Source of the DNA: Escherichia coli
GTDB taxonomy: Bacteria; Pseudomonadota; Gammaproteobacteria; Enterobacterales; Enterobacteriaceae
DNA length: 64,000 nt
Reading direction: 5' to 3' (one strand)
Assembly (NCBI RefSeq): GCF_013315695.1
Contig: NZ_CP054353.1
The position numbers and the translations under genes are program-made. A model generated the notes under the pieces. The model saw only the letters and a program-made list of their open reading frames with translations, searched no databases and had not been told where the DNA came from. Positions 47,675 through 48,737 of this stretch are shown one piece after another (the stretch's first letter is position 1; every line of letters begins with the position of its first letter).

Positions 47675-48737
47675 GACTGAAGATTCTCCGCAAGCCAGGC
47701 CGCCAGCTCGCCCGGTGTCATGGCGGCTATTTGTGCGCCGACATTAACTAGCGCCTGGGCCGTATCGTGGTCATAGCAAGGTGTTGCGGTGCTATCGAGC
47801 GCCGCCAGTCCCAGCACTTTGATGCCGCTCTGGACACACTTTTTCACCTGATGCGTCAGTAATGATGATGAACCCCCTTCGTAAAAATCGCTCACGAGGA
47901 TAATGACGCTTTTCGCTGGTTGTTCAATAAGTTGCCGACCATATTCCATGGCACTGGCGATATTGGTTCCGCCGCCTAATTGCACTTTCATTAATAACTC
48001 TACCGGATCGGCAACGTCTGCCGTGAGATCAACCACGCTGGTGTCAAACGCCACCAGATGGGTACGAATACCGGGTAACTGCCATAAACAGGCCGCCATC
48101 ACCGCTGAGTGGATCACCGAGTCCACCATTGATCCGCTTTGATCAACCAGTAAGACCAGTTGCCATTGTTCGCTTTGGCGTTTAATGCGGCTGTTAAAGC
48201 GGGGGGATTCGATATACAACTTGCCGTGTTGCGGGTGCCAGTGTTGCAGGTTGGCGCGCAGAGTACTTTTGAAATCAAAGTTTCGCGCCAGTGGAATAAA
48301 TGAGCGGCGACGGCGATCGCGGACACCAGAAAAAGCCTGACGAACTTCCTTTGCCAGTCGCGCCATAATTTCTTCCACAACCTGGCGTACTTTTCCGAAG
48401 GCTGCATACGTTCCAGCACGTCGAGATTTGTCACCACATCTTCAATGCCGTAGCGCAGTACGGCATCGCTTTCCAGCCGTTCAATCACCTGTTGCGGAAA
48501 CAGCGTGTGAATACTGTTGATCCACTCAGGGGTGGTGAGATTTGAGCCACCTAATCCACCGGAGCGTTCACCACGCTGGAGCCGTTCAGGATCGCGCCCG
48601 TACAGCCACTCCAGCGCGTGGTCTATCTGCCGGGCGTTGTCATCCAGCCCACAAAGCGTCGTTTCTGCCGCTTCGCCAAGAATTAATCGCCAGCGTTGTA
48701 GCTCACGGGTGGTCAGAAGATCGTTCAGTTCAGACAT
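47671..48737 (-). pseudogene. yehP: yehP (VWA-domain protein), apparently disrupted by frameshift/internal deletion
   Basis: Two overlapping ORFs in different frames (48114..48737 N-terminal part; 47671..48378 C-terminal VWA part with LVLLVDQSGSM); total span about 70 nt shorter than the 378-codon gene I remember from K-12. Confidence 0.55.

Follow-up and report, generated by a model that had tools for sequence, protein, structure and literature searches.

The gene yehP is a pseudogene in the Escherichia coli DNA studied here, a stretch of 64,000 nt that we call the window: it carries an indel whose length is not divisible by three, and a premature stop cuts it short. By far the best explanation is a single 70-bp deletion, which very probably arose once and has since been inherited vertically within one E. 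coli lineage as a loss-of-function allele. The gene lies in a minus-strand operon with the following features.

45674..47674, minus strand: yehQ, SWIM zinc-finger protein of 666 aa; in the window, D530N is derived.
47671..48737, minus strand: yehP pseudogene, 1067 nt; the intact gene has 1137 nt and encodes 378 aa.
48391..48392, minus strand: deletion junction; gene nt 347-416 are missing, codons 116-139 (SLLRAVLHTKHLMNPEVLAAARRI).
48730..51009, minus strand: yehM, DUF5682 protein of 759 aa; in the window, D692N and A749T are derived.
51020..52108, minus strand: yehL, AAA_5 / MoxR-type AAA+ ATPase of 362 aa, intact.

The gene order yehL-yehM-yehP-yehQ is that of K-12. Adjacent reading frames touch on both sides of yehP: yehM overlaps its start by 8 nt, and the ATG of yehQ overlaps its stop (ATGA). 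Both its identity and its position between yehM and yehQ make the window locus the orthologue of K-12 yehP (b2121, NP_416625.1, VWA domain-containing protein YehP, 1137 nt or 378 codons). Outside the deletion the two genes share 97.1% nucleotide identity; at the protein level all 115 N-terminal residues agree, as do all but 4 of the 239 C-terminal ones.

The closest intact yehP allele is that of strain MS 21-1, which has the same length as in K-12, 1137 nt. The window gene is shorter by exactly 70 nt; its 1067 nt do not divide evenly into codons. Compared with MS 21-1 it consists of a common prefix of 346 nt and a common suffix of 721 nt, with zero mismatches in either; as the two sum to 1067, there is one deletion and one possible placement for it. 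The lost segment, gene nt 347-416, reads GCCTGCTACGCGCCGTTTTGCACACCAAACATCTGATGAATCCCGAAGTACTGGCTGCCGCCCGCCGGAT, and the new minus-strand junction at 48392/48391 reads ...CCTTCGGAAA / AGTACGCCAGG..., in codons TCG GAA AAG/TAC. Against K-12, a global aligner split the loss into two gaps (46 + 24 nt, via an internal AAGTAC); we rejected this solution, a single 70-nt event against MS 21-1 being more parsimonious. A preliminary description of the window had proposed that yehP was disrupted by a frameshift or an internal deletion, and had put the locus at about 70 nt below the 378-codon K-12 gene. Alignments to K-12 and to the intact relative, 99.9% identical, bear this out and make it precise: what was lost is an internal block of exactly 70 nt, whose absence shifts the frame from codon 116 on; the comparison with K-12 yehP that the description had suggested revealed no intact single frame.

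The breakpoints are devoid of repeats. Microhomology at the junction amounts to 0 bp, and a repeat search in the intact allele found no direct repeats bracketing the deleted segment, which leaves slipped mispairing between direct repeats unsupported. The closest approach to such a repeat, CGGAAAG and CGGATAG 71 bp from each other, is imperfect and was discarded as it would not yield the observed junction. We describe the initial event as a spontaneous 70-bp deletion inside yehP, which would have taken place in an ancestor of the lineage.

Since 70 equals 3x23+1, the native frame is left after Glu115. The resulting reading frames are as follows.

48114-48737, minus strand: translated remnant ORF of 207 aa, with 115 native and 92 out-of-frame residues.
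47671..48390, minus strand: native downstream frame (VRQVVEEIMARLAKE... to the stop), encoding VWA_CoxE in full, with the MIDAS residues.
47671-48378, minus strand: downstream ORF of 235 aa, MEEIMARLAKEVRQ... (MEEIMARLAKE...) to the native C-terminus ...WLAENLQS.

The 207-aa ORF begins MSELNDLLTTRELQRW and stays in the native frame as far as VLERMQPSE, continuing with unrelated sequence. It has no Pfam match. Its premature stop at 48114-48116 corresponds to codon ~231 of the intact gene, beyond the MIDAS DxSxS motif. The downstream frame, whose earliest possible starts are GTG 48378 and ATG 48366, matches the VWA_CoxE profile (PF05762) from end to end (1-222/222, E=2e-72, 243.6 bits); intact YehP scores 241.8 bits over residues 151-372, with a cut-off of 26.4. 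All MIDAS residues are encoded in this frame, D222-Q-S-G-S, T281 and D307 in intact numbering; from the yehP start of the window gene they are either read out of frame or left untranslated. The preliminary description had rightly placed the two parts of the gene in different frames, with the junction inside 48350-48420, but their overlap extends beyond the 48360-48400 that it gave: both frames are open over about 48114-48390, and the switch from one to the other falls at 48391/48392.

Ribosomes that initiate at yehP would thus be expected to produce 115 native and 92 nonsense residues and to stop ~440 nt before the normal end of the gene, so that the VWA/MIDAS domain would not be made.

Could the frameshift be a product of sequencing or assembly, with the real gene intact? 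Indel errors are frequent in long-read assemblies, and one carrier assembly (L017, GCA_900448355.1) has many single-base insertions across the operon; they fall in yehM, yehP, yehQ and btsR and resemble assembly indel errors, not biology. The lesion in yehP, however, is a 70-nt block and no homopolymer slip, and it recurs. Among 5,426 complete E. coli genomes, four contain a 50-mer with the junction at its centre: MSB1_4I, from a rectal swab in Australia, and AF3, AF10 and AF14, from blood cultures in the UK. Beyond these, the exact 207-aa product is present on 629 public contigs (NCBI/ENA/JGI/Logan assemblies) from independent projects and sequencing eras, the KTE and UGAA/UFZP series among them. 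Breakpoints are identical in 15/15 carrier sequences examined: besides the window and the four complete genomes, these were ten public loci drawn from the KTE series, the UGAA/UFZP series and further assemblies. With an identical junction across so many independent assemblies we reject an artefact, whose probability we regard as negligible.

The lesion in yehP is also on record in public annotation: RefSeq/PGAP labels the gene a 'frameshifted' pseudogene in all four of MSB1_4I, AF3, AF10 and AF14; the MSB1_4I record (JMX41_RS16650, NZ_LR898874.1) holds an allele identical to that of the window. Of the same 5,426 genomes, 5,335 contain yehP DNA, and among the matches listed after the four carriers, near-identical relatives span 70 nt more. 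A junction in only four genomes against yehP DNA in 5,335 indicates that the deleted form is the derived state.

Over 7.2 kb around yehP the window is 100% identical to MSB1_4I. Along the rest of the stretch the two are separated by one SNP outside a prophage, by ~240 differences within the prophage and by the final 84 nt, which makes the window a very close relative of MSB1_4I but distinct from it. A comparison over 10.6 kb of core places MS 21-1, with its intact yehP, at 99.9% identity to the window, IAI39, CE10 and others at 99.3% and IMT16316-like strains at 99.0%. The nearest relatives of the deletion lineage are MS 21-1, then IAI39/CE10 and ST648-type strains. IAI39/CE10 and ST648 belong to phylogroup F. 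The neighbourhood in MS 21-1 comprises three intact WGR/DUF4132 paralogues, yehI, yehLMPQ and an intact mlrA; the strain is without the yehP deletion and without the three further lesions found in the window, which are listed here.

55659..57084, no strand assigned: IS4, 1426 bp, in the first WGR/DUF4132 gene, flanked by a target duplication of ~12 bp.
52494..53262, no strand assigned: IS1, 386 bp upstream of yehL.
1-41907 of the window: lambdoid prophage, filling the first ~41.8 kb; an mlrA remnant lies at 41840-41907.

The three WGR/DUF4132 paralogues lie downstream of metG. The IS4 insertion in the first of them is present in every carrier of the yehP deletion examined, all four complete genomes included, and not in MS 21-1. 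The IS1 at 52494-53262 replaces 7.3 kb of the MS 21-1 sequence, comprising yehK, yehI and most of the second WGR/DUF4132 paralogue. This loss is shared by the window, MSB1_4I and AF3, whereas AF10 and AF14 keep yehI and the second paralogue, and both contexts recur among the ten further public loci. From the retention of yehI in AF10 and AF14 it follows that the IS1-linked loss came after both IS4 and the yehP deletion. A second IS1 copy at 63149-63916, identical to the first, truncates the yeh fimbrial operon beside yehE. The 84 nt that follow it (63917-64000) are unlike MSB1_4I, so that an IS1-associated rearrangement separates the two strains. Elsewhere in the species, an ST131 sublineage has been described in which the metG/DUF4132/yeh region is a site of transposon insertion (PMC9334617).

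In the window, the prophage breaks mlrA (yehV), which encodes the curli/csgD activator, behind nt 68; in all four complete carrier genomes the same prophage genes lie beside btsS. The Stx1 prophage of O157:H7 also integrates at mlrA. The gene layout, with a Q antiterminator, three tRNAs, a SASA-family esterase (nanS-p-like) and a holin, is like that of Stx phages, but no stx gene is annotated here. The tRNA genes (10692-10941, plus strand), downstream of the Q antiterminator gene, are Met(CAT), Arg(TCG) and Arg(TCT). Nearly all differences between the window and MSB1_4I, ~240 of 241, reside in this prophage and cluster at ~20-25 kb and 31-33 kb, a pattern that suggests mosaic recombination.

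What the cell may lose with YehP can be approached through its operon partner. YehL matches AAA_5 (MoxR/dynein-related) with E=1.6e-34; bpMoxR and AAA_3 score below the threshold, and its best solved relatives are Midasin AAA domains. No solved-structure relative of YehP was found by sequence. With an AAA_5 protein and a VWA_CoxE/MIDAS protein encoded in one operon, the pair resembles MoxR-AAA+/VWA systems, and YehP is probably the VWA partner of the MoxR-type AAA+ ATPase YehL. MoxR-type AAA+/VWA pairs include CoxD-CoxE, NorQ-NorD and CbbQ-CbbO, and eukaryotic Midasin is the fused form. The likeness resides in YehP, which is VWA_CoxE from end to end with its MIDAS, and in the AAA_5 protein YehL encoded beside it. 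On the other hand YehM (DUF5682) and YehQ (SWIM) are absent from the known pairs, and the VWA partner goes untranslated in this window. A database label, 'VMA domain YehL ATPase stimulator', exists as annotation only.

Searched with the PADLOC-DB v2 defence models, none of YehL, YehM, YehP and YehQ gave a match at E<=0.01, and we rejected YehLMPQ as a catalogued defence system on these grounds. We found almost no published work on the function of DUF5682, DUF4132 or yehP. In K-12, yehL and yehM are derepressed in hns/stpA mutants and are thus repressed by H-NS/StpA (PMC3686432); in Shigella sonnei lineages 2 and 3, yehM/yehL are deleted (PMC12795559). For a yehP knockout of K-12, altered swarming is reported in work cited by PMC2790909. 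The loss of yehP is consistent with a dispensable, usually silent locus under H-NS silencing.

With YehP gone as the putative partner of YehL, the YehLMPQ module would most likely be disabled. The effect may also reach downstream: the 8-nt yehM/yehP overlap and the ATGA shared by yehP and yehQ point to translational coupling along the operon, and as the yehP stop normally overlaps the yehQ start, early termination would be expected to cut yehQ translation or transcription.

Three ways of rescuing YehP function were considered, namely an internal start, -1 slippage at the junction and the +1 site known from K-12; taken together they seem quite unlikely.

Through an internal start, yehP would be split into an N-terminal fragment and a stand-alone VWA_CoxE protein, initiated at GTG 48378 or ATG 48366 and still working with YehL. 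The downstream ORF does retain a complete VWA_CoxE domain with all MIDAS residues, and on 107 contigs gene-calling programs have placed a 231-aa protein beginning MARLAKE.... Upon inspection of the sequence, though, neither start has a good Shine-Dalgarno at proper spacing; both sit in a region translated in the other frame, where coupling from yehM is lost. The product would also be deprived of the N-terminal 143-147 residues, which are conserved and always fused to the domain in intact alleles. That the ORF is free of substitutions in every carrier examined could be read as a sign of constraint, but zero substitutions in 720 nt are expected by chance in so young a clone, while the partner genes yehM and yehQ are gaining missense and nonsense changes. 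We consider a working split protein very unlikely.

Ribosomal frameshifting could in turn restore the frame, either by a -1 shift at the newly formed G-GAA-AAG, yielding a YehP short of 24 residues (Δ24), or by compensation at the K-12 +1 site. The direction suits the first of these, as the native downstream frame is -1 relative to the upstream one and tRNA-Lys could slip from AAG to AAA; A-AAG is a -1 slip-prone site for E. coli tRNA-Lys, as in dnaX. The surroundings do not. There is no full X-XXY-YYZ heptamer, re-pairing of the P-site codon from GAA to GGA is poor, no SD-like stimulator is present upstream of the junction, and the 101 nt around it fold no better than shuffled controls (z = +0.71). 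Of the hallmarks of a programmed ribosomal frameshift (heptamer, stimulator, conservation), none was found at the yehP junction. The junction is confined to the deletion lineage, and the motif is an accidental by-product of the deletion.

The second route rests on an experimentally supported +1 frameshift-prone cassette at codon 291 of K-12 yehP, reported by Liao et al. 2009 with FSscan (PMC2790909). It concerns the same gene and likewise a change of reading frame; the K-12 case, however, is a ribosomal event on an intact gene, and the window has a DNA deletion at codon 116. We rejected rescue by this site: it shifts in the wrong direction, codon 291 lies past the premature stop (~231), and the stimulator is altered. 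The SD-like GGAG of the K-12 cassette reads GGAA in the window lineage (47934-47949, minus strand), and its loss there means that conservation of the cassette is not universal. We regard frameshifting of either kind as scarcely credible.

A further possibility is that a stand-alone VWA protein, or a low level of Δ24-aa YehP, has retuned YehLMPQ and that the allele is kept by selection in a successful extra-intestinal clone. We think this very improbable. Loss of function in a single lineage remains the preferred reading.

We polarised substitutions within the carrier lineage, with K-12 and IMT16316 as outgroups. In yehM the derived changes in carriers are D692N, A749T and Q643* (nonsense, in one genome); in yehQ they are D530N, G413S, A187D and V274A. 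This gives 6 missense, 1 nonsense and 0 synonymous changes for the two genes, a non-synonymous excess that comprises 7 events in a small, non-random genome sample. In yehL the carriers show one synonymous change, and the flanks have hardly changed, btsS, btsR, yehS and yehR showing one missense change and one small deletion in total. A candidate inactivating change specific to the lineage, YehL R212M, was dismissed, since the outgroups identify M212 as the ancestral state and R212 as a change peculiar to MS 21-1. While yehL, yehM and yehQ are still full-length in most carriers, the fact that 7/7 changes in yehM and yehQ alter the protein fits relaxed constraint after yehP loss. It is no more than suggestive of relaxed selection on the remainder of yehLMPQ and of an operon in decay.

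The K-12 reference provides a side observation. In MG1655 (locus L010, 17101-18945) yehQ encodes 614 aa, where the window and its relatives have 666 aa, and yehH is annotated as a pseudogene; the reference strain thus also carries decay at this locus.

Altogether, the yehP allele of the window is an ordinary pseudogene and a case of routine lineage-specific gene loss, which matters little by itself. With its breakpoints known exactly, the 70-bp loss could offer a clean clonal marker for typing one E. coli lineage, and natural yehP-null isolates would serve as ready-made controls if the function of YehLMPQ were ever sought. Together with its surroundings, the allele documents a stepwise decay of the metG-yeh region, through IS4, the yehP deletion and the mlrA prophage, then the IS1-linked 7.3-kb loss and the drift of yehM and yehQ. 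This decay is consistent with yehLMPQ being dispensable in human-associated strains.
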